From assembly GCA_011939005.1 (NCBI GenBank), contig GCA_011939005.1_4858.1: 64,000 nt of DNA, one strand, 5' to 3'. Both the position numbers and the translations under genes were made by a program. This document shows positions 2,970 through 41,175 of this stretch, piece after piece (the first letter of the stretch is position 1; every line of letters starts with the position of its first letter). This stretch comes from a phage. The notes below the pieces were generated by a model, which was not told the DNA's origin, ran no database searches, and saw only the letters and a list, made by a program, of their open reading frames with translations.

Positions 2970-3688
2970 AGCAATGCTCCTTTCATGATAGTGTTATTTG
3001 CCAGTAGTGTACCGGCCGCAGGTGATATTTTGGTGTACAGCGTATCCCAGATTTTCTGAAGCTCAGCGACGCGTTGGTCGCGGTCTTCCTTCGCAAAAGC
3101 AAGCTGACGTGTTTCAGCTTTCGGTGGCGTCATTTTCGCACCGTAGAATGCTGCGTCTTTTCGGTAGCTGGCCATCCAGCGTTTCCCGACCGATGATTTC
3201 TTTTTAATCATCGCAACAGCAGCGCTCTCACCGAAGCGGTAGCCTAATGCGATTTCGGCTGTGCTCGGCTTGCGTTTGAGTTGTTTTGTCAGATGATCCT
3301 CGATGTGTTTCATGTAAACAGCAGCAAGCTGTACAGCATATTTCGGTTTATTAAGGTCTGCGTTCTTTGGGATGTTAAGTTGTTTCCCATACAGACGTAT
3401 CATGGAGCGTTTAGTGCCTGTCGTCATTTGGACAACACTACTAGCACTGCTCGATTTATTCTTACCCACGTTTTTATTAAAACGGGATTCGCGGTAAATG
3501 GTGGTCGCAAGCATCCCGGCATGTACACCTTGCTTTTGAGATGCAGAGACGATGAGAGGTTTAATCTCATTGAACTGGTCCTGGATAAGGACGAATTCTT
3601 TTTGGTGTTTGTTACTGGTGGTCTGGTAAGAAGCGTTGCTGTTGAATGTGGTCACTGCTACCAGAAGAAATAAAATGGTGCGAAACAT
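2966..3688 (-). CDS. secreted lytic transglycosylase (SLT domain) with N-terminal signal peptide
   Basis: ATG with GGAGA RBS; hydrophobic N-terminus MFRTILFLLVAVTTF; motif ESRFN...SSASSVVQMTTGT resembling the SLT catalytic-Glu region (ES..N...S.GA.GLMQ...T). Confidence 0.6.
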   Translation of the reverse strand: MFRTILFLLVAVTTFNSNASYQTTSNKHQKEFVLIQDQFNEIKPLIVSASQKQGVHAGMLATTIYRESRFNKNVGKNKSSSASSVVQMTTGTKRSMIRLYGKQLNIPKNADLNKPKYAVQLAAVYMKHIEDHLTKQLKRKPSTAEIALGYRFGESAAVAMIKKKSSVGKRWMASYRKDAAFYGAKMTPPKAETRQLAFAKEDRDQRVAELQKIWDTLYTKISPAAGTLLANNTIMKGALL

Positions 3689-3787
3689 GGATGTATCTCC
3701 AAACGGATTTATACTTTTCCGTTCCCAATCCGGGAAGACGGCGCGGACGGCATTGTGCTCCTTTGTAATGTGCCCTGATGATAATAT

Positions 3788-4288
3788 CTATTTGAAACTT
3801 TTTGGGATGATTTTCTCTGCTTCCCTCAGCAGGGTGTCCGGTAAATAGAATCGATAAGTCTGCTCCGTGTGCTGTAGTCTTTTCTGTAAGTGTATAAAGA
3901 TTTCCAATCGCTCATGGTAACGTAACCAACCGTTAGCCATCCCTAGGGGCGGTATCGCAATCCCTCCTTCTAAGTCTTCCCCTAGTCGCGCCAGCGCATC
4001 AATGCCGGACGTGACATAGTAAATCTGCGATTTATAGCGAAAATGGGTTTTAGTAGGAAGGAGTATTACCCCTTCCTCAGGATAACAATAGACCTCACCG
4101 ATAACGATTTGCTCTTTACGACATTTCTGGCGATAGTCATTATAAAGCGATGGGAAGCGTTCTCGGCACGCCAAAGCAATGCCCCTTCCCATTGCACCAA
4201 CACAGTTAACTGTAACGACCTTGAAGCGCTCAGGCGCGTTAAACAGGTCGTGGGAGATAATAGCCTCGTCGATCAGTTCTAGTGACAT
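3788..4288 (-). CDS. macro domain protein (TARG1/Poa1p/DarG-like ADP-ribose hydrolase fold)
   Basis: VNCVGAMGRGIALACRERFP matches the C-I-S...G.GIA..F...F signature of TARG1-type macro domains; later GIAIPPLGMANGW resembles the second macro motif. Confidence 0.55.
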   Translation of the reverse strand: MSLELIDEAIISHDLFNAPERFKVVTVNCVGAMGRGIALACRERFPSLYNDYRQKCRKEQIVIGEVYCYPEEGVILLPTKTHFRYKSQIYYVTSGIDALARLGEDLEGGIAIPPLGMANGWLRYHERLEIFIHLQKRLQHTEQTYRFYLPDTLLREAEKIIPKSFK

Positions 4289-4487
4289 CTATTGCCATAC
4301 CCCATTGTGAAATAACCGGAGACTGAAGCAACGATTCCAGCTCAGTAAGAACTCTGGCTTTTGCTTCTTCGCGCAACTTACGGACTTCCGGATCGGGTTT
4401 ACCTGCGCCTAAATATTGGGGTTCTGTTTGTGGGGTAGGGAAACCACAGAAAGAACTAACCATTATTCCGATGATTGTTTTTTGCAT
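4239..4487 (-). CDS. hypothetical protein (82 aa)
   Basis: ATG with AAGGAA RBS, abuts stop of upstream gene; overlaps macro gene start by 50 nt. Confidence 0.4.
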   Translation of the reverse strand: MQKTIIGIMVSSFCGFPTPQTEPQYLGAGKPDPEVRKLREEAKARVLTELESLLQSPVISQWGMAIDVTRTDRRGYYLPRPV

Positions 4488-4910
4488 TTAGCTATTCCTT
4501 TTCACCCAGGTTTGTACCGCTGACTCGAAACCTTCGTGTTCGATACCGAGTCGTTTCATTGCCAACATAGTGTTGAGGCTATTCGTAATTTCTTCACGGT
4601 AGCAATGGTCGTCCATCTTACGCCAACACTTCTCCGGGTCAACACCTAAGCGTTGGAGTAGATACGCCTCACGCACCATACCAGGCCGCCAGAATTTAGG
4701 GCGGGTAATCGCGATTTCAATCATGGGTGTCATGTCCAACGTGTGCGCGAGAATACTAACCGGCGTTTCCCCAACTTTATCACGTAACGCTAAACGTAAC
4801 CACCACTGAACGTTTGCTTTGGTTTCAGGTAACAGATCGTAGAATAAGGCTGTTTCTTCTTCTGATAAATGATCGTATAGTGATTTTGTTTCGCGAATAG
4901 CGGTAACCAT
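4488..4910 (-). CDS. hypothetical protein (140 aa)
   Basis: ATG with AAGGAG RBS. Confidence 0.65.
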   Translation of the reverse strand: MVTAIRETKSLYDHLSEEETALFYDLLPETKANVQWWLRLALRDKVGETPVSILAHTLDMTPMIEIAITRPKFWRPGMVREAYLLQRLGVDPEKCWRKMDDHCYREEITNSLNTMLAMKRLGIEHEGFESAVQTWVKRNS

Positions 4911-27973: not shown

Positions 27974-28011
27974 ACCGCCCTTCCGTTATTGGGAGGGCGG
28001 TCTCCGTTTTA
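27974..28011 (+). terminator. intra-operon hairpin / possible attenuator
   Basis: Stem accgccc/gggcggt followed by ctccgttttatt between two giant ORFs. Confidence 0.4.
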
Positions 28012-28033
28012 TTACAGATTAGGAGTGTTTGCA

Positions 28034-31000
28034 ATGCCGAGAGAAGATGCGGCGCAGTTTAACGGTACCCTCAGTACCGCTACTTACCCGAACCGTTATT
28101 CGACGGTCATTCCCGTCGAAGCACCGTTCTATCGCATCGGGTTAACGTTAACCGTTACCGATAAAACAACCGGAACCAAACGCAAGTTAATAGAAGGTCT
28201 TGATTATTTCTTAGGACATTACTTCCAGGAATTAGCCGAGGCTGAGAACGATGCAATATACGGCAGCATAATGCTGCTGAACGCCACAGAGGTAGAATAC
28301 GAGTTATTGTCGGTTGGTCGACAGTATCGCATCCCTGCTTCTGAAATCGGCAAGTATCTGGTTAAGACGGATATGAAAGACCCGCGCAACTGCGATTGGT
28401 CTGAGCTGATGAAATATCCGCCGATTATCTCGCCAATCGACCCGCCAAAAGATCTCGAAGAAGCCATCCTTCGCGATGAAATCGTAAAGGCGTTGGAAGA
28501 TATCCGTCTGGGTATTTTAGAACGTGCCCACGAACTGGATGAGGCTTTTGCGGAAGTTACTGATTTGATTTATCAGAACGGTAAAAAGGTGTTTGATGAC
28601 GAAATGTATCAACACCACCTGATTAAAAATGCACATGGTTACACCTGCGGTGACATTGGCGCTCTCCCGGTACTCGGCAAAGCCGTAGATGCGACTAAGG
28701 CATTCGGACGTACCCTGGCAGAGCTAGTGACGTTAATGTCTACCAGTGGCATCCAACAGAAACACGTTGACATGCTTCTGGATAATACCCTGGGTGATTT
28801 ACTGGGCCGTATGCGTGTTCTGAATAACGACGCGATTACGTTCCAAACAACGTCTGGTCACGTTATCAGCATGAAGGGTGAGAAGTTCATCATCACCTCG
28901 ACAAAACCGCTGGTATTAAAAGCTGACCAGGATAACAACGAACCGGGTATCGCTACGGAGTTCAGTGCTGGTCTGAACACGCTTTGGGTTCACTCGGGTA
29001 AAGCAGGTGACAAGTGGGGCGCTTATGATGCAGGTGTGCTTGCACCTGTGTATAACAGCGTGTATCTCGTTACGCCGGATATGGTTAAGATGTACTTGAC
29101 CTCGGTGAAGATACTTCCAGCAAACGCCTACTTCAAGTCCAGCGACACGTTGAAGATTTACGGCTCTGGTAAAGAAACAAACAAACTTTACATGAATGCG
29201 GAGCTGCCTGCAGCAACCACAACTGTGCAGGGTTTGTTTGCGATTACTAACCTTTCGGCGTCCGCTGCAGCATCCACAGCGATTTCCCAAAAAGCTGTTA
29301 CTGACTTGAAGAACAAACTCGACGGATATGTGGACGACACGTATACAGTCAACGGTAAAGGGTTTGTATTAGATTCAAACGGGCAGATGCATCTGACCTT
29401 AACCGCGGCAGATTTCGGTATTGAGAAGATGAACAATACCGGGCCGCTGGAGAAACCGGTTACTAATGCGTTGCGCACCGTGCTATCTGGCAAAGCGCTT
29501 ACAACGCACACCCACACCATTGCCGATCTCGATAACGTGCCGTACGCATCCACGTCTGTTACAGGTTTGGCTAAACTGTGGGATGCTATTGACACCACAA
29601 CAGATAAGATGGTTACTTCGCGTCAAGGCTTCTTGCTTGAACAGAAGATTGACACGCTGAATGACAAGATTGCTACGTTATTACCGGCGTGGACTGTCGG
29701 CGGATCATCGTACGGCAACAATAACTTCTTGCCTATACCTGTCCAGGGGAACTACGAAGGGTATACCAAAAACCAAACCTGGCAGAAAGGTTTGGCGCGT
29801 TACGAGTCTGGTAAGGTTTACTCGCTCCGTAACGGTTCTAACGGGAACCCACCAGGTGACTGGGCTATCTATTACGCCTATGCTGATGTGTCGCCAAGCA
29901 ATACGCTGGAAAATATGCAGCAGACGTCCGTACGCTATCGACCCGCTGGAATGTCGGCGTATCCTGGGGTGAATCTGGTTGCTATTGTGATTACCGGTAC
30001 CGATGCAATGATCTGCTTAGGCAGTGACGGTGCGTACTACCTGGTCATCTTCGATGGGACGATTGACCATGCAAAACATCATCGTGTTGTTAAAGTGGTG
30101 TTGGGTGATTACAAGAACGGTAATGGTGCGGGCACAGTAACGACAGCACCGTGGGCTCCAAACGCTTCTACAGACGATTTGATTGTTTGTAATGAACGTG
30201 TCTACCTGTTGCGTACGGTGCTTACCTCCGGTAACTATTTCGTGAGTATGCGTAGCATCGCACTCAACGAACTTAATCTGGGTGGCAGCAACACGTTTGT
30301 GGCGGATGCGTTAACAGGCGGGATATTAACGTCGGGTGAAAACGTTTATCTGCGACAGGGACAGAAACGTGCACCTTCCGATGCGCTCCCAGCACCAGTT
30401 ACACAGATCTACGCAGACGCGTTAGCGAAGTGGAACAATGCAACCAACTTTGTACATGGTCCTGAGTGTAATCACGCGATTGGTGTTGATGGGCTGAGCT
30501 TTCGTGTTGGTTTAACTCCAACGGTTTGGTTTGCTTCTACTACAGGGCAAACTATTAACTTTAAACAATGGGTGTCAAGCTTTGTTGTCGACTGTAGCGC
30601 ATTAACGGTAACGCTGGAAGGGGCTGATCGATTCCCTATTGTGGCTGATCTTACCACGGTTCGTTATAACGGTGGTACTGAGATTGGGATTCCAAGCCGG
30701 AAGTGGGGCGAAGGTCAAGCTAATAACCGAACCTTTGCAACATCGCAAGACAAGTATATCGTTTCGCAGGGACATGCAGGCGATCGCGACCTAATGCCAA
30801 TTGTCACGATTACCACGTTAGACGACGGTGTGAGTTGGTACGAGTACCTGTCGTGCGACTACAACTTCACTGCCAGAAGTTTTAGTGCGGTAATGTTAAA
30901 CCAAGGTCGTGGTTCTATCTACGAGCTAGGTATGGCGTATCCACTGACTCTGGGAGCGAATTCCAGACTTATCTGGTTGTCACAGCCACGTTCCCGTTTG

Positions 31001-33217
31001 GCAATTGAAGTTGAGTTTGATCCGAACACCACTTACTCAGGTAAGGTGGGGTATGGCCCAACTAACAATCGTCGTGTAGTAGATTCTATCACGTATGAGA
31101 ATCTGTCGCAGATGTGCCACATTGTTACACCGGCGTCGCCTGGTACAGAGTTAAACGGCTGGTATTGCACAGGGCCAGAAACATTCCCTTACCACAACGT
31201 TTCTGGCACTTTCACGATTCATGCCGATCGGTTGACGCTGTCACAGGCCGAATGGGATAAGATGAAGCAGATGATCATCGACGGTGCACCGGCAGGCGCT
31301 GCGAATGGTTATGCTTCGGAATTTATCCTTGCCGCAAATAACGCAGGAAAGGCATTGTTCTCCGTTTGGTTCATCGGCATTGGTACGGCCACACCGCTCA
31401 CGTTAGCACAAGTAGCATGTACGCGTACTGTGAACAACGTTAACGTGTTGGATATCTACTACTTTACACTGAAACCAACAATCAGCAACGGGCAGGTAAC
31501 ATTCCCCGCAGCGATATTGGCTTTGTTTGACTTCTATAACAACCTCGACTATAGCTTGAACTATGCTACGTTGGGTGAGATAACGGGAGGAAAAACACGC
31601 CGGCCGGGACAACCTACCTTGGTGTCAGTAGATGGTACTCAGTTCGGGTTGTATCTTCCACACACGTTAACCTTGCGCCAAATTGGCGACTTGGGTGCGC
31701 TTAACTACGCTGTTGGTCTTACGCTGTCTAATGGTACTTGGACGCGTTCTTCTGCTCCACACGGCGTTGGACGTATGGCACCGTCACACACTCCAGTCAG
31801 TCCAGCTTATCTGGCACATCGCGATCAAGTGATGTTACACAACTCATCTCTCGACTACGTCTATTGTGGTGGTATCGCAACGCCGTCGAGAGATTTTGTC
31901 GCGGCTCCTAATTTTAGTGGCCCGACTGAATCGGTTGTCATTGCTGGTGTGGAAACAGCTGAAGGTTGGCTGGTATATGTGACTGAGGAAGTTGACCTGC
32001 GTTTCGGCTCGAGCACTTATAAGCTGCCTACGTGGTATATTGACCTCAGCGCAGCATTTCCAACAAACCATCAGAACCGGACATTCTACCTGCACGCCAA
32101 GGTAGAAAATGGTACACCGAAGTACGTAATGGACGTGGTTCAACATCCAGACACTGAAACGGAACTCTACATCGGGTATGTTAAAACGGGCTCGTCGCGA
32201 GTCGTCGAGACTAACGTCGAACATGCTAAGCGATTGGGGGCGGTGAAACAACTGTTGGAACATGCGGCGGTTGAGAATAAGCATGATGTGGAGGTGGGAA
32301 GGGATGCGGCAACGGGCAGACTGGCACCATTGCGTAAAGAAGCGATGGGTCCTTTGTCTATCGATGCTACGAAAGGCTATCTGGATAGTCAGTTGCTTTA
32401 TACCGTATCTGACGCACAGCGTCGCGGTAAACCGATGGTCTCCAAACGTTTCGAAGGCTTGAAAACTTTGCCGGCGTTTACTCAGGCAAACAAGTCGGGG
32501 GCGTTTTGGAAACATCCTACAACAATTGCGACGGTAACGGCCGATGAGAACGGTGAAGCGGCATCGTTGGGAATGGAGTGGGTGGGTATCCCTACGCCTG
32601 CTTTCTCTCCGACCTCAGGAATGATGATAGTGGTGATACAAAGTAAATTCGTCGTCCCAGGTACACCGGGAGTAGAAACGACCTTTAATGTCAACATCGC
32701 CCCATGGGATACGGTAGATAGATTTTTCTACAACGTCGAGGCGGAAGGTAAGGATGTTAACATTGAAGAAAATCCAGAAGTGCTAATGCCGACACCACAT
32801 ACCGTGTATCACAAACAGCATTCTCTGCCCGCAGGCGTGCCATGTACGTTTACTTTCGCTGCTGTGTTGAGTTCCCCAGCGCTTGAGATGGCCAACCAGC
32901 ATATTTGCTCTTGGCTTTTCACGGACGCGGGGGGACTACCAATCACCACCGATCTTTCGGATAGTAAGATTCAAATCTTACCATTGGGGGGAGAGACCTA
33001 CGGCACACCAGTTGTTTTGAACAGCCGTAGCTACACGTTTGTGGATGTGGCGGGTGCAATTCCGGTTGTTACCACGGGCGCTCAGGGTTTATTCCCACCA
33101 CCGATCGTGGCGTGGGATGGCGATGATCTTACGTTAACGATTGCGCACGATTGGGTGAACGAGAGAGGATGGCAACAGCCTGATATTATCCAGGTCAATC
33201 TTATGTTCCGTACCTAA
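28034..33217 (+). CDS. giant virion structural protein (about 1728 aa; tail fibre/adhesin-like, putative)
   Basis: ATG at 28034 with AGGAGTG RBS preferred over track start 27989, which lies in the hairpin. Confidence 0.8.
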   Translation: MPREDAAQFNGTLSTATYPNRYSTVIPVEAPFYRIGLTLTVTDKTTGTKRKLIEGLDYFLGHYFQELAEAENDAIYGSIMLLNATEVEYELLSVGRQYRIPASEIGKYLVKTDMKDPRNCDWSELMKYPPIISPIDPPKDLEEAILRDEIVKALEDIRLGILERAHELDEAFAEVTDLIYQNGKKVFDDEMYQHHLIKNAHGYTCGDIGALPVLGKAVDATKAFGRTLAELVTLMSTSGIQQKHVDMLLDNTLGDLLGRMRVLNNDAITFQTTSGHVISMKGEKFIITSTKPLVLKADQDNNEPGIATEFSAGLNTLWVHSGKAGDKWGAYDAGVLAPVYNSVYLVTPDMVKMYLTSVKILPANAYFKSSDTLKIYGSGKETNKLYMNAELPAATTTVQGLFAITNLSASAAASTAISQKAVTDLKNKLDGYVDDTYTVNGKGFVLDSNGQMHLTLTAADFGIEKMNNTGPLEKPVTNALRTVLSGKALTTHTHTIADLDNVPYASTSVTGLAKLWDAIDTTTDKMVTSRQGFLLEQKIDTLNDKIATLLPAWTVGGSSYGNNNFLPIPVQGNYEGYTKNQTWQKGLARYESGKVYSLRNGSNGNPPGDWAIYYAYADVSPSNTLENMQQTSVRYRPAGMSAYPGVNLVAIVITGTDAMICLGSDGAYYLVIFDGTIDHAKHHRVVKVVLGDYKNGNGAGTVTTAPWAPNASTDDLIVCNERVYLLRTVLTSGNYFVSMRSIALNELNLGGSNTFVADALTGGILTSGENVYLRQGQKRAPSDALPAPVTQIYADALAKWNNATNFVHGPECNHAIGVDGLSFRVGLTPTVWFASTTGQTINFKQWVSSFVVDCSALTVTLEGADRFPIVADLTTVRYNGGTEIGIPSRKWGEGQANNRTFATSQDKYIVSQGHAGDRDLMPIVTITTLDDGVSWYEYLSCDYNFTARSFSAVMLNQGRGSIYELGMAYPLTLGANSRLIWLSQPRSRLAIEVEFDPNTTYSGKVGYGPTNNRRVVDSITYENLSQMCHIVTPASPGTELNGWYCTGPETFPYHNVSGTFTIHADRLTLSQAEWDKMKQMIIDGAPAGAANGYASEFILAANNAGKALFSVWFIGIGTATPLTLAQVACTRTVNNVNVLDIYYFTLKPTISNGQVTFPAAILALFDFYNNLDYSLNYATLGEITGGKTRRPGQPTLVSVDGTQFGLYLPHTLTLRQIGDLGALNYAVGLTLSNGTWTRSSAPHGVGRMAPSHTPVSPAYLAHRDQVMLHNSSLDYVYCGGIATPSRDFVAAPNFSGPTESVVIAGVETAEGWLVYVTEEVDLRFGSSTYKLPTWYIDLSAAFPTNHQNRTFYLHAKVENGTPKYVMDVVQHPDTETELYIGYVKTGSSRVVETNVEHAKRLGAVKQLLEHAAVENKHDVEVGRDAATGRLAPLRKEAMGPLSIDATKGYLDSQLLYTVSDAQRRGKPMVSKRFEGLKTLPAFTQANKSGAFWKHPTTIATVTADENGEAASLGMEWVGIPTPAFSPTSGMMIVVIQSKFVVPGTPGVETTFNVNIAPWDTVDRFFYNVEAEGKDVNIEENPEVLMPTPHTVYHKQHSLPAGVPCTFTFAAVLSSPALEMANQHICSWLFTDAGGLPITTDLSDSKIQILPLGGETYGTPVVLNSRSYTFVDVAGAIPVVTTGAQGLFPPPIVAWDGDDLTLTIAHDWVNERGWQQPDIIQVNLMFRT

Positions 33218-33264
33218 CAGATAGCGCTATGGGGCAAGGAAGCCCCAATCAAAGGAGTTTGGCA

Positions 33265-34467
33265 ATGGCCGAAATCATTTATCAGTACCCGCTCGACCTT
33301 ACCGGGACATTAACGTCGAACGCCGTTACGCGGCGTATTACGTTAGGTTCTGGTAAAGTTAACCGGGCTTTTGCATTTCCTGACGGAGCTTTCTACGCGG
33401 ATACCTTCCGCTTGGCGGCTGCGAATAAACCAGGTGTCTACCCGTACAAACGCGGCACAGACTACGAACTGATTTTTGCACATACTGCATATCAGAAAAT
33501 GACCAAGAACCGCGAAGTGGTCATGGGTGTGGTGGTAACTAACTCGGCCATTCCTACTGATATCGAAGTCTCTGCGCAAGTCGTTGGTGGTTTTCAGTCC
33601 GCGAACGTCGAAGGCATCCGACAAGCGATTGCGTCGTTGAAAATTGAAGACCGCGTGGTGGACTTCAAGGATCTTCGAAACGTACCCGATACGTTCCCGT
33701 CCGCACCGACGTATAAAGACCTTGGCGATATCTACGGTTTTGAGTATATCATTACCGTACTCGCGGGGATTAAAGATGCGATTAACTCCGGCTCTGCAGT
33801 ACAGCTGGAAGAAATTAAAGGTATTCTGGGTGGTCTGAAAAACGACTTCCTCGACGCCTTAAATGCCCACATCAACGCCGAAGGTAACGTACACAATCTC
33901 GACATTCATCAGGTTAATGGCCTGACGGAGACGGAGATTCGTGCCCTGATTCAAAGTGTACAGACTGCCATTGACGCCACCATCAAAGATATCGGCGACT
34001 TAAGAGCAGCAGACACAGCGTTGGGGCAACGCATCGATGCAATTGTGGCTTCGTTAGCCGCGTGGAACGACCAGCTTAACGTGGTTGCTCAAAATTACCA
34101 GAAAATGTCGTTAGCATTAGCTAACCTTAATTCTCTGGTGTTGCAATTACAGAAGATGGTTAACGATCTTCAGTCTGCACTGAATAAAACAAATCAGCGC
34201 GTCACGGATCTTGAGAATCAGGGCAAAGACTTCCAACAGCAAATTGATAACCTGCAAGGACAAATCAACAGTCTTAAAACTCAGGTTGTAAATAACACCA
34301 ACGCAATTTCGCAGGCAAACCAGAATCTGGCGAACCATGCGGCTGCGGATAACCCACACCCGAATTACCTCCATAAACAGTATGGCGGTGTTGTGCAGGC
34401 TGCTGTTCACGTCAACAACAACCTCACCTCGCGCGACGATGTTCAAGCTGAAGCGGGTACTAAGTAA
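33265..34467 (+). CDS. coiled-coil fibre-like protein (401 aa)
   Basis: ATG at 33265 with AAAGGAG RBS; C-terminal half is a long heptad-like Q/N/L-rich coiled coil. Confidence 0.75.
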   Translation: MAEIIYQYPLDLTGTLTSNAVTRRITLGSGKVNRAFAFPDGAFYADTFRLAAANKPGVYPYKRGTDYELIFAHTAYQKMTKNREVVMGVVVTNSAIPTDIEVSAQVVGGFQSANVEGIRQAIASLKIEDRVVDFKDLRNVPDTFPSAPTYKDLGDIYGFEYIITVLAGIKDAINSGSAVQLEEIKGILGGLKNDFLDALNAHINAEGNVHNLDIHQVNGLTETEIRALIQSVQTAIDATIKDIGDLRAADTALGQRIDAIVASLAAWNDQLNVVAQNYQKMSLALANLNSLVLQLQKMVNDLQSALNKTNQRVTDLENQGKDFQQQIDNLQGQINSLKTQVVNNTNAISQANQNLANHAAADNPHPNYLHKQYGGVVQAAVHVNNNLTSRDDVQAEAGTK

Positions 34468-34532: not shown

Positions 34533-34925
34533 ATGGCGATATCTATTAAAGACGTCAGAAACCGCGTCCAGATAGTCGAAGCTAACATGGCGACAGGCCC
34601 CCGCGTCGACGCGCAAGTGGCCTCTAAAGCCCATAATGCGGCAGACCGATTTGGGGGTTGGACGAAAACACAGCTAGATTGCGGAGGGACATGTTCTTGG
34701 ACGTGCTCTAACGGTTGCTCGCATGGCTGTTCGAGCTGTTCAGGAAGCTGTTCTGCTTCTTGTATCGGTAGCTGTTCTTCGACGTGTGGCGGTAACTGTT
34801 CTGGTTGCTCTGGTTGTTCTGGTGGTTGCAGTAGTAGCTGTACCGGTAACTGCACAGGTGGTTGCGGTGGCTCTTGTTCTTCCAATTGTTCCGGAGCCTG
34901 CTCCGGTGGCTGTTCAGGTCGCTAA
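34533..34925 (+). CDS. Cys/Ser/Gly-rich small protein 1 (130 aa): leader-like N-terminus plus about 16 CxxxC tetrad repeats; candidate radical-SAM substrate
   Basis: ATG with AAGGAAG RBS; core DCGGTCSWTCSNGCSHGCSSCSGSCSASC...; paralogous to the next two ORFs. Confidence 0.65.
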   Translation: MAISIKDVRNRVQIVEANMATGPRVDAQVASKAHNAADRFGGWTKTQLDCGGTCSWTCSNGCSHGCSSCSGSCSASCIGSCSSTCGGNCSGCSGCSGGCSSSCTGNCTGGCGGSCSSNCSGACSGGCSGR

Positions 34926-34935
34926 GGGGGATTAA

Positions 34936-35340
34936 ATGGCAATTGGATTAAAAGAACTGAATAACCGATTAAACACGATCGATGCAAACGCTCTAAAGAA
35001 TACCACGAATGTGCAAAACTACATTCGCAATAAAGCTACGAATAACGCTGACTTGTTCGCAGGTCAAGGTCGTTCGCACTACGACTGTGGTGGTACGTGT
35101 TCTTTTAGCTGCTCAAGTTGCTCTGGCGGGTGTACTGGGTCTGCGACAGGTGGTTGTGGGTCGACTTGTTCGGCAAACTGTGTATCAGGCTGTAGCAGCA
35201 GCTGCACGGGCTGTAGCTCTTCGTGCTCTGGTGGTTGTAGCGGCACGTGCACAGGCAGCTGTTCTGGGGGTTGTGGTAAATCCTGCTCCGCAAACTGCTC
35301 AGGTGCGTGCTCTGGTGGTTGTTCAGGTCCTAACTCCTAA
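34936..35340 (+). CDS. Cys/Ser/Gly-rich small protein 2 (134 aa), paralog of 34533..34925
   Basis: ATG with AAGGGGGA RBS; same leader-like N-terminus and core start DCGGTCSFSCSSCSGGC. Confidence 0.65.
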   Translation: MAIGLKELNNRLNTIDANALKNTTNVQNYIRNKATNNADLFAGQGRSHYDCGGTCSFSCSSCSGGCTGSATGGCGSTCSANCVSGCSSSCTGCSSSCSGGCSGTCTGSCSGGCGKSCSANCSGACSGGCSGPNS

Positions 35341-35355
35341 CTGACGGAGGCTTAT

Positions 35356-35562
35356 GTGATCAGTCTCAAGACTATTCGAAACCGTCTCGTTACGGCAGAA
35401 GGTTACATTACAACCGCACAGGCAAACAACTATATCGCTAACCAGGGCACCGTGTCGACCACAAATAACCTGGCTGGCTTACCGCTTTCTCACTATAACT
35501 GTAATGGTGGGTGTAGCTGGTCCTGCAGCGGAAGCTGTAGCCGTGGAGCGGGGAATCGATAA
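35356..35562 (+). CDS. Cys/Ser/Gly-rich small protein 3 (68 aa, short core), paralog
   Basis: GTG start with GGAGG RBS; conserved leader and core start NCNGGCSWSCSGSCS. Confidence 0.5.
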   Translation: MISLKTIRNRLVTAEGYITTAQANNYIANQGTVSTTNNLAGLPLSHYNCNGGCSWSCSGSCSRGAGNR

Positions 35563-35584: not shown

Positions 35585-36472
35585 ATGAAAAACGATTTGC
35601 ATCTTGCGTATAAAACCACATTCAACCACCCGCTGCATCTATCTTCCCCAGATTCAGTGCGTGCACATCTCGCTGACAAAGTCAGACTGATTGCACAGAT
35701 TCCTGGTGAGTGGCCAAAGGTTCGTGGTCGCTTCTTGACCGACAAGAAGAACTACACCGTAGAAAATACGTTTAAGATCCGTGATATGGTTGCAGAGGCC
35801 ATCGTTATCTTTAACGGCGATGGTAACTCTCGCGGCGTGTTGGTTGACGGTAAGTATTTCTTCAGTGAAGGGATTCTGAACAACAGTGTCGATTTAGAAC
35901 TGATGTTTACACCGTTTGACGAACTTGAAGCAAAACCGATGGCGCGCCGTTGGTGGAGTCCGGACTATCTGGGCTCGTTCCCTTACTACTTTGTACTGGT
36001 ACCTGCCGATACGGAAACGTATTTCGACACCGAACCATACATCGATATCGAGGGGTATAAAGAACTCGGCATCACCCGTTTAGCGGACATGATGGCGTAT
36101 AGCTATAAGTTCGTGTGGGATAAAAAGCGTTCTGTCTGGTATGCGCTGACTGACGATTTTGAAATCACCAAGCGTATTCGTAAGCCGTGGATGCAACACC
36201 TGGTTCAAACTCGATATGGGGATTACCCGGCGACAGAAGCGGATTTGAGTAAGCTGGTAAGTTTCCTCTTAACGAAGGTGGATTTAACGAAAGAAGAAGC
36301 AGAAGCTGTTTCTGAGATTCGTGGTCGTTCGGTAACGTTGGCCGATTTGAAACGTCTGAACGAAAGACACGCCGACCTGAACAAAATTTTAGCTGCCTAT
36401 CACGACCCGATGTTACTGGTGCCTGGCGCTAACGTAGACGAAGATCCTTTATTCGCCATTGATTATATTTAA
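35585..36472 (+). CDS. hypothetical protein (295 aa) in radical-SAM cluster
   Basis: ATG with GGAG RBS; no recognisable motif. Confidence 0.65.
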   Translation: MKNDLHLAYKTTFNHPLHLSSPDSVRAHLADKVRLIAQIPGEWPKVRGRFLTDKKNYTVENTFKIRDMVAEAIVIFNGDGNSRGVLVDGKYFFSEGILNNSVDLELMFTPFDELEAKPMARRWWSPDYLGSFPYYFVLVPADTETYFDTEPYIDIEGYKELGITRLADMMAYSYKFVWDKKRSVWYALTDDFEITKRIRKPWMQHLVQTRYGDYPATEADLSKLVSFLLTKVDLTKEEAEAVSEIRGRSVTLADLKRLNERHADLNKILAAYHDPMLLVPGANVDEDPLFAIDYI

Positions 36473-36494: not shown

Positions 36495-37409
36495 ATGACA
36501 GATCAAGTAGAATCCAGGATCTCGTCTGAACTGTACGACAAACCGTCAATTCTGTCGGTTGTCGCAACTTCTAAGTGTAACTTAGACTGTAGCTTCTGTG
36601 GAGGGGCTTATTACATGGATAGAGAAGATACTTCTCGTGAGTTTCAACGTGAAGAGATTCTCTCGATTTTAGAGAAGAATCCGGATATCGGTGAGATTCA
36701 TTGGACGGGCGGTGAGCCGCTGTTAGCGCAGCGCAAGATTGAAGACTTCGTGAACGAGTTGAAGGAGTCTCATCCGAACCTCCGTCATCACATGTACACC
36801 AACGGTTTAAAGATGCGTAAATCACATCTGCCGTTGCTGAAACAGTTCGACCTTATCTTTGTGTCCATTGACGGCTACAAGAAGTCGGAACGTCCGTTTA
36901 TGAACTTTGTAAACGGTGGTAATCACGAAGCGCTGGAAGTGCTGTACGAGCTGGACAACTATTACACCTGGGGTGTGATGACGCGTGACCAGTTAGGTGA
37001 TAAACGCTGGTACGAAGATTTCATCGAGCTGCACCGAGCAATCTATCATTACCGTCCAGGTGGTATGTCGTTGCTGTTTGATGCGATGATGCCGAAACCG
37101 TTATCGCCAGACCACGTCATGAACTTCATGTACGGGTATTGGAAAATACTCGACAATATCGAACGCCTTAACATGCAGAACGATTCTGAATGTGGGCTTG
37201 CGATCAGTAAAATGTTCGATACCGAGTGCAACACGTGCAGTGAAGTGCTGTGGCTTAACGCCGACGGTACGCAGGAGCAAATTCAGAACGCCCCAGAGAT
37301 ATTGGAAGTCGGCTGTAATCGCCTGGCGCGTTCTATCGGCGTTGATGCGTATAACTACATCAACCGTGTAATTTCTGCTAAGCGTAAACGGGCGGCGAAC
37401 AATGAGTAA
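36495..37409 (+). CDS. radical SAM enzyme (305 aa)
   Basis: CNLDCSFC (CxxxCxxC) near N-terminus, GGEPLL and YTNGL motifs, additional C-terminal Cys (ECNTCSEV...GCN); ATG at 36495 with GGAG RBS. Confidence 0.8.
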   Translation: MTDQVESRISSELYDKPSILSVVATSKCNLDCSFCGGAYYMDREDTSREFQREEILSILEKNPDIGEIHWTGGEPLLAQRKIEDFVNELKESHPNLRHHMYTNGLKMRKSHLPLLKQFDLIFVSIDGYKKSERPFMNFVNGGNHEALEVLYELDNYYTWGVMTRDQLGDKRWYEDFIELHRAIYHYRPGGMSLLFDAMMPKPLSPDHVMNFMYGYWKILDNIERLNMQNDSECGLAISKMFDTECNTCSEVLWLNADGTQEQIQNAPEILEVGCNRLARSIGVDAYNYINRVISAKRKRAANNE

Positions 37410-38730
37410 TAGCGAACAGCAAATCCAGTACACACCACGCACGTATCAGGTTGTGACTAACCTGTCATGTAACCTGGACTGCGAATACTGCTACGAGCGT
37501 AAATATCCACGCAATAACAAAGTAGCTGACGTGATTGATTTTATCCACGCTTGCTTCGAGCGCGATAAAGATATCCCGAACGTTGAAGTCATCATCGATA
37601 TCATCGGTGGTGAGCCGTTCATGCAGCCTAAACTTCTTTTGGCGGCCTTTGAAACCGCAGAGAAGTTATGCGCAGAACACAATCGCCCGTATATGTTCAG
37701 TATCTCCACGAACGGTACACTTCTGGACCGTCCGCTGAACAAAGAAATTATCGAGCGCTGGAAAGACAAACTGTCTATTGGGGTCTCCATCGATGGTTTA
37801 CCTGAAGTCCATGACAAATATCGTATCTTTACCACGACGCGTGAAGGGTCGTACGAAGCTGCGGTACGTGGTTACAATTATCTGAAGAGTGTTGGCATCG
37901 CTGAACTGGGCGTAAAGGCGACGTTTACGATCGATACATTGCCGCACTATGCCGCCAGCATGAAATCGTTAATTGACATGTCCGGCGGTGGTACCATTTC
38001 TGGTAACGTAACGTACGAAGATATCCTACCGCGCCATATGGCGTTGGATATCGCGAACCAGATGATGGACGTGATGGACTACTGGATTGAGAAGGGTCTG
38101 CACACCAACCCGCGTAACACGATTACACACATCATCCCGGATGGCCTGAACTTTATGGCAACTTGGGACCCGGATTGGCGTGACAAACTCTTACATGACG
38201 ACTCTGTTCGTCTCGACCCAGAACGCCTGAAACCGTACTGCGGTACGTTGACGCACATGACCTGTCTCGGCTTTGATCGCAAGATTTACGGTTGTAACCG
38301 TTTCATGTCCACGGTAACTTCCCGTTCTGCTGTAGCAGAACTGGTCGGTCGTGAGTTTGTGAGCCTGGACGGTGGTAAGCTGTTAGAAGAGATTCAAACG
38401 CAGTACACCAACTACCCAGAAACCTGTTTAGGGTGTCCGATGAAACACAGTTGCGGTAGCTGCGCGGCAGCATCGTACGAAAACGGTGAAGGTACACTGG
38501 AAGACCGTAAAGCGTATCATGCCGAGCGTCGTCAGTGTGGTTGGACTACTGCGAAGCTGATGGCGGCAGAATATTGGTATCAGAAAACTGGTACGACCCG
38601 CGCATCAGATTTGCATGATAAATCCATGTGCTATTGTTCACGTTGTGTACGCCAACGTGCTGAAGCAGAAAAATTACAAAACGGAGCCCAGAATGAAGTC
38701 AATACTGATTCACAATTTTACGAAGCGTAA
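37402..38730 (+). CDS. radical SAM enzyme with SPASM-like C-terminal Cys cluster (442 aa)
   Basis: CNLDCEYC, GGEPF, STNGTLL motifs; C-terminal CLGCPMKHSCGSCAAASY and CYCSRC; overlaps previous gene by 8 nt. Confidence 0.85.
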   Translation: MSNSEQQIQYTPRTYQVVTNLSCNLDCEYCYERKYPRNNKVADVIDFIHACFERDKDIPNVEVIIDIIGGEPFMQPKLLLAAFETAEKLCAEHNRPYMFSISTNGTLLDRPLNKEIIERWKDKLSIGVSIDGLPEVHDKYRIFTTTREGSYEAAVRGYNYLKSVGIAELGVKATFTIDTLPHYAASMKSLIDMSGGGTISGNVTYEDILPRHMALDIANQMMDVMDYWIEKGLHTNPRNTITHIIPDGLNFMATWDPDWRDKLLHDDSVRLDPERLKPYCGTLTHMTCLGFDRKIYGCNRFMSTVTSRSAVAELVGREFVSLDGGKLLEEIQTQYTNYPETCLGCPMKHSCGSCAAASYENGEGTLEDRKAYHAERRQCGWTTAKLMAAEYWYQKTGTTRASDLHDKSMCYCSRCVRQRAEAEKLQNGAQNEVNTDSQFYEA

Positions 38731-39259
38731 ACTGCACTTGGTCGATCGCTTCCTGCGCAAAAGCAAGCTGTACAATGTGCACGCAATTGTGGCAGGGGAA
38801 GACTTCACTGATGAAATCCAAAGCCTGTTGATTAAATACGGGCTGAATGTGATGATCCCGGTCTACTGCGTTGAGAAAGGACACGAGTCTGTCGCAGAAA
38901 TCGAAAAGCGCAATCCTGGCTTTGAGAAGCGATTGCTCGCATACCCACGCCACAAAATCGAACTGCTACGTCATTCCATCGATGAAGCCAGTCCTGAAAG
39001 TTTAGTGGCTTTGGGCTTGTCTTTCCCGCGGATGCGTATTCGTAACTTACGCTCCAATAATCCGGTCGACGCGTATTACACAGAGCGTCAAATCTTTGAA
39101 GAACATCTGCTCCCGCAGTTGGAAGAAGAAGAGCAACACAACATTTCGTTGTTGTGGGCCGGTAACCTCGATCAGGACTTCCAGATGCTGGACTTCGGTT
39201 TGTTGTTAGAACTTGGCCTGATTGAGGAGGACGAATGTCTGTTACTGACAAAAGCTTAA
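38693..39259 (+). CDS. hypothetical protein (189 aa) in radical-SAM cluster
   Basis: ATG at 38693 with ACGGAG RBS preferred over track start 38615. Confidence 0.5.
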   Translation: MKSILIHNFTKRKLHLVDRFLRKSKLYNVHAIVAGEDFTDEIQSLLIKYGLNVMIPVYCVEKGHESVAEIEKRNPGFEKRLLAYPRHKIELLRHSIDEASPESLVALGLSFPRMRIRNLRSNNPVDAYYTERQIFEEHLLPQLEEEEQHNISLLWAGNLDQDFQMLDFGLLLELGLIEEDECLLLTKA

Positions 39260-39906
39260 CGAACGAAGAGATCCGCGCCCGTTATTTCCAGCGCAATTTG
39301 CCGATTGACCGACACGGCAACTTCATGGAACGTATCGGTGCAGAGGATCAAGGCCGTACAGGCTTTTGCGCTCTGCTCCATTATCATCTCATCGAAGGGA
39401 TGTCTGATAAAGAAGCCCTGGCACGCATGAAGCTGTATGAGATGTCGGAGATTGAAGCTAACTTCACATTGAAACGCACGAAAGAGTTTATTGCTAATGT
39501 GCTGGAGATTGACCTCGACGAAATTCGCGGGAATCTAAAATCTACCGCACGTTACATTTACGAAGACGTGCAGAAGATGCTGTTGGAACTCGACCACCGC
39601 TACGAAGATGAGCGCCATGGTTATATCGAGTTTGAAGGTAGTCACTTTCAAGCCGATGAATCGTCGCGTACCATCCTCGGTCAATACATTCAGGCAGATA
39701 CCGCACCAGAATACTGGCTCGATACGCTGAATACTAAGCACAGTCCGTTTACAGTAGACCAATGTAAAGCGTTGTTGGGCGCTATTGTTGCACGCGACCA
39801 AGTGTTGCACTCAGCAATGGCAGATAACAAACGCCAAATCCGTGAGTTAGCTGAAAAGCGCGATTACACTGGATTAAAAACATTGTCCGAGTCACTCGGC
39901 ATGTAA
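39235..39906 (+). CDS. hypothetical protein (223 aa) in radical-SAM cluster
   Basis: ATG with perfect GAGGAGG RBS; followed by terminator. Confidence 0.65.
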   Translation: MSVTDKSLTNEEIRARYFQRNLPIDRHGNFMERIGAEDQGRTGFCALLHYHLIEGMSDKEALARMKLYEMSEIEANFTLKRTKEFIANVLEIDLDEIRGNLKSTARYIYEDVQKMLLELDHRYEDERHGYIEFEGSHFQADESSRTILGQYIQADTAPEYWLDTLNTKHSPFTVDQCKALLGAIVARDQVLHSAMADNKRQIRELAEKRDYTGLKTLSESLGM

Positions 39907-39908
39907 GC

Positions 39909-39965
39909 AAAGAAAATAAAGGCCCTACCTCCCCGAAGGGAGGTAGGTACCTTTTATTTATTTCT
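39909..39965. terminator. bidirectional rho-independent terminator
   Basis: Hairpin ccctacctcccc-gaa-gggaggtagg flanked by A-run and T-run; closes the plus-strand block. Confidence 0.7.
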
Positions 39966-41131: not shown

Positions 41132-41175
41132 TGCTTACCCACTCCCGTAAGGGGAGTGGGTAAGGGCTTTATTTA
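41121..41175. terminator. rho-independent terminator (bidirectional)
   Basis: Hairpin cttacccactccc-gtaa-ggggagtgggtaag with flanking A-run and T-run. Confidence 0.65.

Follow-up and report, generated by a model that had tools for sequence, protein, structure and literature searches.

A stretch of phage DNA of 64,000 nucleotides (contig GCA_011939005.1_4858.1 of GenBank assembly GCA_011939005.1; hereafter the window) encodes two radical SAM enzymes in tandem, one small and one large, downstream of three genes whose products carry a cysteine at most fourth positions. Sequence comparisons indicate that these genes belong to a conserved four-part module, comprising one or more C-[S/T]-G-x repeat proteins, a gp165-like protein, a small radical SAM enzyme and a large radical SAM/SPASM enzyme. 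The enzyme pair probably serves to cross-link tail-fibre-associated Cys-repeat proteins through thioethers, in the manner of peptides that are made on the ribosome and altered after translation (RiPPs), a reading that we hold with modest rather than strong confidence. Its parts differ in strength: we infer strongly, from sequence, that the Cys-repeat proteins are the substrates; thioether chemistry by the large enzyme is moderately well indicated, by analogy, because its nearest families are CteB, PapB and TIGR04115; that the products are tail-fibre-associated structural elements is likewise moderately indicated; and the roles assigned to the small enzyme and to the gp165-like protein are speculative. 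The genes of the module in the window are as follows.

34533..34925, + strand: Cys-repeat protein A, 130 aa (phrog_6085, E = 1.5e-40; AAGGAAG Shine–Dalgarno sequence)
34936..35340, + strand: Cys-repeat protein B, 134 aa, 20 Cys (phrog_6085, E = 3e-41; AGGGGGA Shine–Dalgarno sequence)
35356..35562, + strand: short Cys protein C, 68 aa, GTG start (phrog_6085, E = 2.7e-24; GGAGG Shine–Dalgarno sequence 5 nucleotides upstream)
35585..36472, + strand: gp165-like orphan protein, 295 aa (phrog_8030), the conserved fourth component
36495..37409, + strand: small radical SAM enzyme, gp164-like, 304 aa (C28/C32/C35 plus invariant C245/C248/C274)
37402..38730, + strand: large radical SAM/SPASM enzyme, gp163-like, 442 aa (C23/C27/C30, eight Cys in the SPASM region and a lineage-specific C-terminal CxCxxC)

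Between positions 34400 and 39950 the window shares 98.3–98.5% identity with Salmonella phage SPN3US and phages closely related to it; SPN3US belongs to the genus Seoulvirus, jumbo myoviruses of about 240 kb. The small and large radical SAM genes correspond to SPN3US_0164 (gp164) and SPN3US_0163 (gp163), which the SPN3US records have called, since their deposition, ‘putative radical SAM superfamily protein 2’ and ‘... protein 1’ respectively. The tandem enzymes are thus already publicly annotated; the genes around them mostly are not. In both the GenBank and the RefSeq record of SPN3US, gp164 starts at the equivalent of about window position 36615 (Met41), which loses the CX3CX2C cluster motif, and the correct start of the window's equivalent is the ATG at 36495. 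The TTG at 36459, which opens the longest open reading frame (ORF), was rejected as a start, having no Shine–Dalgarno sequence and giving a protein out of keeping with homologues of 300–307 aa.

The full module was found in SPN3US, in phage STsAS and in Cronobacter phage CR5, in the uncultured jumbo-phage contigs L004 and L005, in a further contig (L009), and in a prophage of Deferribacter abyssi (L003), where it stands right after a GpJ-like tail protein and adjoins ordinary chromosomal genes. The T4-like contig L007 carries a gp13 neck gene, a 568-aa fibre protein ending in the Cys repeat, two small ORFs and two radical SAM genes; its gp165-like assignment is doubtful. At every locus examined, a Cys-repeat gene is present with the enzymes and the module lies among tail or tail-fibre genes, the neighbouring fibre genes themselves being unrelated between lineages. 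Genes adjoining the radical SAM pair encode homologues of the gp165-like protein in L009 (E = 5e-13) and the prophage of Deferribacter (E = 2e-9). The protein has no match in Pfam or NCBIfam (E <= 10; HxsD included) or, when a six-sequence profile is used, in the PDB, and an exhaustive phmmer search recovered only 23 representatives of the family among 1.84 billion proteins, all of similar length except for two long partial matches. In L005 two copies of the small radical SAM gene (1865–2830 and 3659–4522) flank the gp165-like gene, giving three radical SAM genes at that locus.

A reading of this DNA made from its letters alone (the sequence-only reading) had described two distinct radical SAM ORFs in tandem, the second with a SPASM-like domain, and this much is borne out. 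Both lie on the plus strand and score well above the 29.5-bit cutoff of Pfam Radical_SAM (PF04055), the small enzyme at 58.6–58.8 bits (E = 1e-15) and the large at 55.6 bits (E = 1e-14); the length of 442 aa given for the large enzyme is right, and the 305 aa given for the small one should be 304, the figure of 305 codons including the stop. The cluster motif of the large enzyme, C23-NLD-C27-EY-C30, is kept in all 51 aligned homologues (down to 32% identity), and the radical-cluster Cys of the small enzyme (C28-NLD-C32-SF-C35) are kept in 25 of 26. The two do share CNLDC, as had been pointed out, but the string is not the unusual feature it was taken for, since enzymes of this subgroup ordinarily read CNLxC there, as in CteB (CNLRC) and anSME (CNLKC).

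A SPASM domain is recognised by a seven-Cys motif, C-x(9-15)-G-x4-C ... C-x2-C-x5-C-x3-C ... C, which corresponds to two auxiliary [4Fe-4S] clusters. The large enzyme has this pattern, with three upstream Cys, a CX2CX5CX2C element and a distal Cys, the last spacing in the element being x2 rather than x3. Seven of these residues (C280, C298, C342, C345, C351, C354 and C379) are invariant across the 51 homologues and the eighth, C288, is present in 47; the string CLGCPMKHSCGSCAAASY, which the sequence-only reading had quoted, is present in the large enzyme and supplies C342, C345, C351 and C354. Eight ligands are predicted to suffice for two fully ligated auxiliary [4Fe-4S] clusters. The AlphaFold2 (AF2) model of the enzyme (predicted local distance difference test score, pLDDT, 91) finds its best PDB match in the thioether-forming enzyme CteB (Foldseek E = 2e-15, template modelling score 0.61), with the triceptide maturase ChlB, anSME and TigE also matched, and a profile of the large-enzyme family aligns with CteB residues 104–425 (E = 5e-37) with the SPASM Cys in register. 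Neither phage enzyme has an N-terminal RiPP recognition element (RRE): in the large enzyme the cluster motif begins at residue 23 and in the small one at residue 28, and the alignment of the large-enzyme family to CteB begins after the RRE of CteB.

A second quoted string, CYCSRC (C410, C412 and C415 of the large enzyme; window 38629–38646), is likewise there, but it had been assigned to the auxiliary-cluster region and this does not hold. It lies outside the SPASM domain because it belongs to a C-terminal extension that is missing from 19–20 of the 51 aligned homologues, the Deferribacter enzyme included. The extension occurs only in the long jumbo-phage forms, where the Cys are found in 25–29 of about 31, and the relatives that lack it are about 360–390 aa long. 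The C-terminal CxCxxC could form an extra metal site. In relatives such as P0074 and P0080, the tail triad appears as CCCQQCNC and GSCGCK.

That only the second enzyme carries auxiliary-cluster ligands is doubtful as well. C245, C248 and C274 of the small enzyme are invariant in all 26 homologues (C233 is not conserved), and in the AF2 model (pLDDT 88) they sit on a beta-strand/loop/helix (beta-hairpin/helix) element that follows the core barrel; a putative single three-Cys auxiliary site, of the twitch or MoaA type, is plausible. The GGEP motif, which binds S-adenosylmethionine (SAM), is also conserved in the homologue alignment. Matches of the small enzyme to MoaA, viperin, QueE and NrdG are weak and confined to the N-terminal core, and in fold comparison the whole model most resembles peptide maturases; on these grounds we rejected a nucleotide enzyme of the MoaA, viperin or QueE type.

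The two enzymes are distinct proteins, with only 26% identity over their first 144 aa (pairwise E = 1e-4). Several features tie them together. The ATG of the large gene overlaps the stop codon of the small one (ATGAGTAA, 37402–37409), an arrangement that suggests translational coupling. Sequenced-phage records matched the large enzyme in 64 cases and the small in 63, with an identical breakdown by genus. In addition, the small and large enzymes are naturally fused in a 634-aa protein (P0098, from an ENA ERZ1426824 contig) whose two halves each retain CNLDC; its gene comes after one for a 570-aa CXXX-repeat protein and a 221-aa ORF. Because the genes are fused in one case and strictly co-occur in the others, there is good evidence that the enzymes cooperate on the Cys-repeat protein, which favours joint action of the pair.

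It is conceivable, but unlikely, that catalysis on the repeats is the work of the large SPASM enzyme alone and that the small one is an accessory or partly degenerate paralogue (acting, for example, as a scaffold, electron relay or activase) that contributes no second chemistry. The two enzymes share one family, phrog_1802, a TIGR04115-like system at locus L010 manages with a single radical SAM enzyme, and in distant members of the small family the placement of the C-terminal Cys varies (CX2C...C, CxC...C and C...C...C), all of which would suit an accessory role. Such a role sits poorly, however, with the conservation of CX3CX2C and GGEP in the small enzyme, with three C-terminal Cys that are invariant within the jumbo-phage clade, with the two small-enzyme copies in L005 and with the full small domain retained in the P0098 fusion. 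The sequence-only reading had further supposed that oxygen sensitivity would tie the activity of the pair to anaerobic growth of the host; this is unsupported. Radical SAM enzymes, SPASM types included, function in the cytoplasm of aerobically grown bacteria, and the module is shared by phages of facultative Enterobacterales and the prophage of a strict anaerobe, Deferribacter abyssi.

The presumed substrates are built to a simple plan. Protein A has a 49-aa N-terminal region followed by 21 Cys, and the core of protein C consists of nothing but a junction motif and CNGGCSWSCSGSC. Successive Cys are four residues apart in 17 of the 20 gaps in A, 16 of 19 in B and all three in C (36 of 42 in total), most of the other gaps, in A all of them, being of three. 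Over eleven Cys-repeat proteins the repeat unit is C-[S/T 75%]-[G 60%]-[S/G/T], with cores that are 25% Cys, and every core is preceded by the junction motif N-x3-[L/F]-x-G-x5-Y-x-C-x3-C-S-W-[S/T]-C. Against TIGR04114 (CXXX repeat) the Cys proteins score 18.9 bits (protein A) and 17.1 bits, the cutoff being 20, and their relatives carry the Pfam domain PF27846, tSAM_targ_Cxxx_rpt. The only PHROG that the window proteins match, phrog_6085, is a family of unknown function.

These ORFs have largely escaped annotation. In SPN3US the ORF of protein A is unannotated and gp166 has been called in another frame of ORF B (window 35009–35344; SPN3US, locus L001, 9610–9945); in STsAS none of the three is annotated; and in CR5 only the short one is, together with a spurious ORF on the opposite strand (CR5_157). 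Searching with protein B recovered no more than 26 homologous proteins, plausibly because such low-complexity ORFs are seldom predicted by gene callers. A comparison with STsAS (about 80% nucleotide identity) nevertheless gave 45 synonymous codon changes to one non-synonymous in the core of A and 46 to four in that of B, as against 16:13 and 16:10 in the respective leaders. Since the core changes are overwhelmingly synonymous, we take the Cys ORFs to be real genes under strong purifying selection in the Cys frame.

Every jumbo-phage locus encodes two long (about 130 aa) and one short (60–73 aa) Cys paralogue (window 34533–35562; L012 1634–2655; L015 2537–3564; L005 832–1865; L004 9809–10789). 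The short third paralogue is kept in STsAS, CR5, L004 and L005, with the junction and the first C-x3-C-S-W unit only. Tail fibres are trimers, and this, together with the recurring set of two long and one short paralogue, raises the idea that A, B and C might form a heterotrimer in jumbo phages.

The link to tail fibres extends from gene order to the proteins themselves. In L003, L007, L009 and P0155 a larger, fibre-type protein of 213–568 aa ends in the Cys repeat: the 271-aa protein of L009 begins with a PF12571 tail-collar fibre domain (24.2 bits, cutoff 23), matches phrog_3737 (‘tail fiber protein’) and contains a coiled coil; P0155 (213 aa) matches phrog_5073 (‘tail fiber protein’); the 568-aa protein of L007 matches phrog_16122 (‘virion structural protein’); and the 302-aa protein of the Deferribacter prophage (L003) has repeated HxH-DDRYYTE-type fibre motifs and a weak match to PF12789. 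The first half of the junction motif (N-x3-L-x-G-x5-Y) is also found in fibres that have no Cys repeat, namely a Peptidase_S74 fibre of L004 and a 733-aa fibre of L009. Proteins A, B and C, encoded immediately upstream, are plausible as the three substrates of the earlier proposal, but ‘precursors’, the word used for them, fits less well, since they resemble tail-fibre-associated structural proteins and scans of the operon with Pfam, NCBIfam and PHROG found no protease, exporter/transporter or immunity gene.

These observations bear directly on the possibility that the locus is a classical RiPP cluster carried as a phage ‘moron’, in which A, B and C would be leader–core precursors of free thioether peptides (a bacteriocin, a signal or an anti-competitor compound) that are released at lysis and form no part of the virion. 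The arrangement of a leader-like N-terminus and a Cys-rich core is typical of precursors, the leaders evolve faster than the cores, the best families of the large enzyme (TIGR04115, PapB and CteB) are RiPP maturases, and gp161–166 have not been seen in SPN3US virions. We nonetheless think this explanation rather unlikely, as the unit lacks a leader peptidase, a transporter and an immunity gene, the enzymes lack an RRE, the module lies inside the tail-fibre operons of at least five unrelated phage lineages, the supposed core is the C-terminus of fibre- or virion-type proteins in the four cases just described, and the supposed leader ends in a motif common to ordinary tail fibres.

Cross-linking of fibre-associated proteins has its closest parallels in four known systems. 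The first is the CXXX system of TIGR04114, TIGR04115 and PF27846, in which a protein with Cys at every fourth position likewise adjoins an RRE-less radical SAM/SPASM enzyme of about 360 aa; among NCBIfam models TIGR04115 gives the phage large enzyme its highest score, and it is relatives of the phage targets that carry PF27846. The phage module differs in adding a small radical SAM enzyme and a gp165-like protein, in having repeats that consist almost purely of C, S, G and T, where those of L010 are rich in D, E and other residues, and in its position in tail-fibre operons with a target often fused to fibre domains. At L010 (487–3552; 213 bits to TIGR04115) two D/E-rich CXXX proteins of 337 and 169 aa flank the single radical SAM gene; a beta-helix-like protein of 375 aa is encoded downstream, and the locus has no small radical SAM or gp165-like gene. 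The second system, PapB/PapA (freyrasin), shares the radical SAM/SPASM architecture, the PapB profile covering residues 22–357 of the large enzyme, and a substrate with several in-line C-x3 motifs. PapB installs six thioethers between Cys sulfur and the beta carbon of Asp in CX3D motifs (PMC9413430). PapA is, however, a short peptide of a bacterial RiPP cluster with a single radical SAM enzyme, and its acceptors are the Asp/Glu of CX3D, residues that make up less than 1% of the phage repeat cores.

CteB/CteA (thermocellin, SCIFF-type; PDB 5wgg and 5why) offers the best solved-structure match, by profile as well as by fold, but CteB begins with an RRE of about 100 aa that has no counterpart in the phage enzyme, shows Ala where the phage family has C288, and is only 19–20% identical in sequence. 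The His-Xaa-Ser system (HxsA, HxsB, HxsC and HxsD) is the nearest in composition, combining a short-period repeat protein with a large SPASM radical SAM enzyme, a small radical SAM enzyme and an accessory protein. Among NCBIfam models HxsC ranks first or nearly first for the small enzymes (45–53 bits), and HxsB scores 62–96 bits against the large ones; the window enzymes give 75 bits for HxsB and 45 bits for HxsC, and every one of these scores is far below its cutoff (370 for HxsB, 268 for HxsC). The phage repeat is nevertheless C-x3 and not H-x-S, and gp165 has no similarity to HxsD. To our knowledge the Hxs system is itself uncharacterised.

That the Cys-repeat proteins are instead metal- or Fe-S-binding (metallothionein-like) or disulfide-rich fibre segments, and that the radical SAM pair acts elsewhere (on gp167/gp168, a sugar or a nucleotide), is unlikely: cores of 25% Cys could chelate metals, the small enzyme has its faint N-terminal resemblance to MoaA, viperin and QueE, and no chemistry has been shown for the clade, but that resemblance stops at the generic radical SAM core, a Cys-repeat gene accompanies the enzymes at every locus examined even as the fibre neighbours differ, and TIGR04114/TIGR04115 and PF27846 already pair CXXX repeats with such enzymes.

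In the thioether mechanism that we favour, the large enzyme would carry the SAM cluster and two auxiliary [4Fe-4S] clusters, and a 5'-deoxyadenosyl radical would take hydrogen from a backbone or side-chain carbon of the repeat. The enzyme would then bond that carbon to the sulfur of a neighbouring Cys and, doing so some 20 times per protein, would build a ladder of small thioether rings. Asp or Glu could not be the acceptor, which would leave Ser, Thr, Gly or Asn, bonded at an alpha, beta or gamma carbon. The small enzyme, with its SAM cluster and probably one three-Cys auxiliary site, would perform a second radical step on the same proteins; it might act on the invariant C-S-W-[S/T]-C junction (the short paralogue retains no other core element), form cross-links of another regiochemistry, or epimerise residues. 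With an N-terminal RRE absent from both enzymes, presenting or chaperoning the substrate may fall to the gp165-like protein. The modified proteins would then serve as tail-fibre-associated structural elements, in jumbo phages possibly as an A/B/C heterotrimer.

Several results weigh against this account. The Pfam SPASM model, PF13186, gives no match at E <= 10 for the window's large enzyme or for P0085, P0093 and P0111, and is carried only by a very distant relative, P0114; assignment to the SPASM group is therefore based on the Cys pattern, on the alignment of the family profile and on the fold. The best NCBIfam scores of the large enzyme, 125.6 bits to TIGR04115 and 113.6 bits to the PapB family (NF047865), lie well below the cutoffs of 350 and 340. 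Other tested large enzymes of the phage clade reach 135–181 bits and 120–199 bits respectively, and the relative nearest to TIGR04115, P0113, scores 213 bits, again short of 350. On these scores the phage enzyme belongs to a sister clade of the TIGR04115 and PapB families and to neither of the two. In CteB, auxiliary cluster I (Aux I) has an open site that binds the substrate Cys, whereas Aux I of the phage enzyme seems fully ligated by Cys, with C288 in the column where CteB has Ala; a fully ligated Aux I may argue against coordination of the substrate as a thiolate. The repeat cores lack the Asp/Glu acceptors on which PapB relies. No chemistry has been demonstrated for the phage clade or for TIGR04115, for which we found no published biochemistry.

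Two further points in the same direction concern the fibre link. Proteins A, B and C of the window have no recognisable fibre domain in their roughly 50 N-terminal residues, and proteomics of SPN3US virions detected gp167–173 and none of gp161–166 (PMC5694885). Because the Cys ORFs are absent from the annotation that was searched by mass spectrometry and have almost no tryptic sites, the proteomic data neither support nor exclude A, B and C in the virion.

Taking all of this together, we put forward a more specific proposal only tentatively, regarding it as possible but short of probable: that phage radical SAM enzymes introduce thioether or other radical cross-links, arranged as ladders, where tail-fibre proteins end in Cys repeats, a RiPP-style modification of a virion structural protein that would be conserved across enterobacterial jumbo phages, T4-like phages and a Deferribacter prophage, and that the target in SPN3US-type phages is a heterotrimer of two long and one short protein that annotations have omitted. 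The pairing of CXXX repeats with a radical SAM enzyme is a known bioinformatic family (TIGR04114/TIGR04115 and PF27846). What appears to be undescribed in the searchable literature is the architecture of two enzymes plus gp165, its consistent placement in tail-fibre operons, the fusions of target and fibre, and the three unannotated ORFs of SPN3US-type phages; we found nothing there connecting SPN3US gp163/gp164, CXXX repeats, TIGR04114/TIGR04115 or PF27846 with phage tail fibres.

If the proposal is true, RiPP-type radical chemistry, studied so far in small secreted peptides, also builds virus particles, and could give them stapled fibre segments that resist proteases, heat and reduction. The generically annotated radical SAM pair of SPN3US-like phages would gain a function, and three conserved genes, missing or mis-called in SPN3US, STsAS and CR5, would be added to their genomes. 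SPN3US, for which an amber-mutant system exists (PMC5694885), would become a cultivable model for the chemistry of CXXX-repeat maturases, and rods of highly repetitive C-S-G-x, stapled by enzymes, might be of use in peptide and materials engineering. The giant phages 332-Vera of Aeromonas (PMC12390700) and pPa_SNUABM_DT01 of Pseudomonas (PMC8541153) are reported to carry six to eight radical SAM genes, for which no explanation has been offered, those of 332-Vera lying inside a cluster of tail-fibre structural genes (PMC12390700). The only published mentions found of radical SAM genes in giant phages are brief comments that such clusters are unusual, or guesses at a role in DNA repair. The proposal might bear on these clusters.

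The module is part of a longer run of genes on the same strand, whose other members and apparent limits are these.

27974..28001, + strand: strong terminator-like hairpin upstream of the tail-fibre gene (12-bp stem with 8 GC pairs, T-run)
27989..33217, + strand: gp168-like giant tail-fibre/baseplate protein, 1742 aa (SPN3US_0168)
33229..34467, + strand: gp167-like virion structural protein, ending in a long coiled coil (phrog_2163 ‘virion structural protein’, E = 5e-108)
38693..39259, + strand: gp162-like protein, 188 aa (phrog_7988, E = 8e-87; ATG start as in SPN3US_0162)
39235..39906, + strand: gp161-like DUF4376 protein, the last gene of the unit (PF14301, 37 bits against a cutoff of 25; phrog_8169)
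39924..39947, both strands: bidirectional terminator-like hairpin (10-bp stem with 7 GC pairs, T-runs on both strands)

Both gp168 and gp167 are virion proteins of SPN3US, the former a baseplate or tail-fibre candidate (PMC5694885). The run from gp168 to gp161 is flanked by the strong hairpins, with only weak consensus matches between them, and the hairpin at 27974–28001 is likely to mark the upstream boundary of the transcription unit. No tRNA genes were found in the window. A gp162-like ORF follows the large radical SAM gene in L004 and L005 as well; more generally, gp161-like and gp162-like genes always lie 3' of the large radical SAM gene in the jumbo-phage lineages and are absent from the Deferribacter and L009 modules. 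A further strong terminator-like hairpin, at 41134–41164, delimits the next gene pair.

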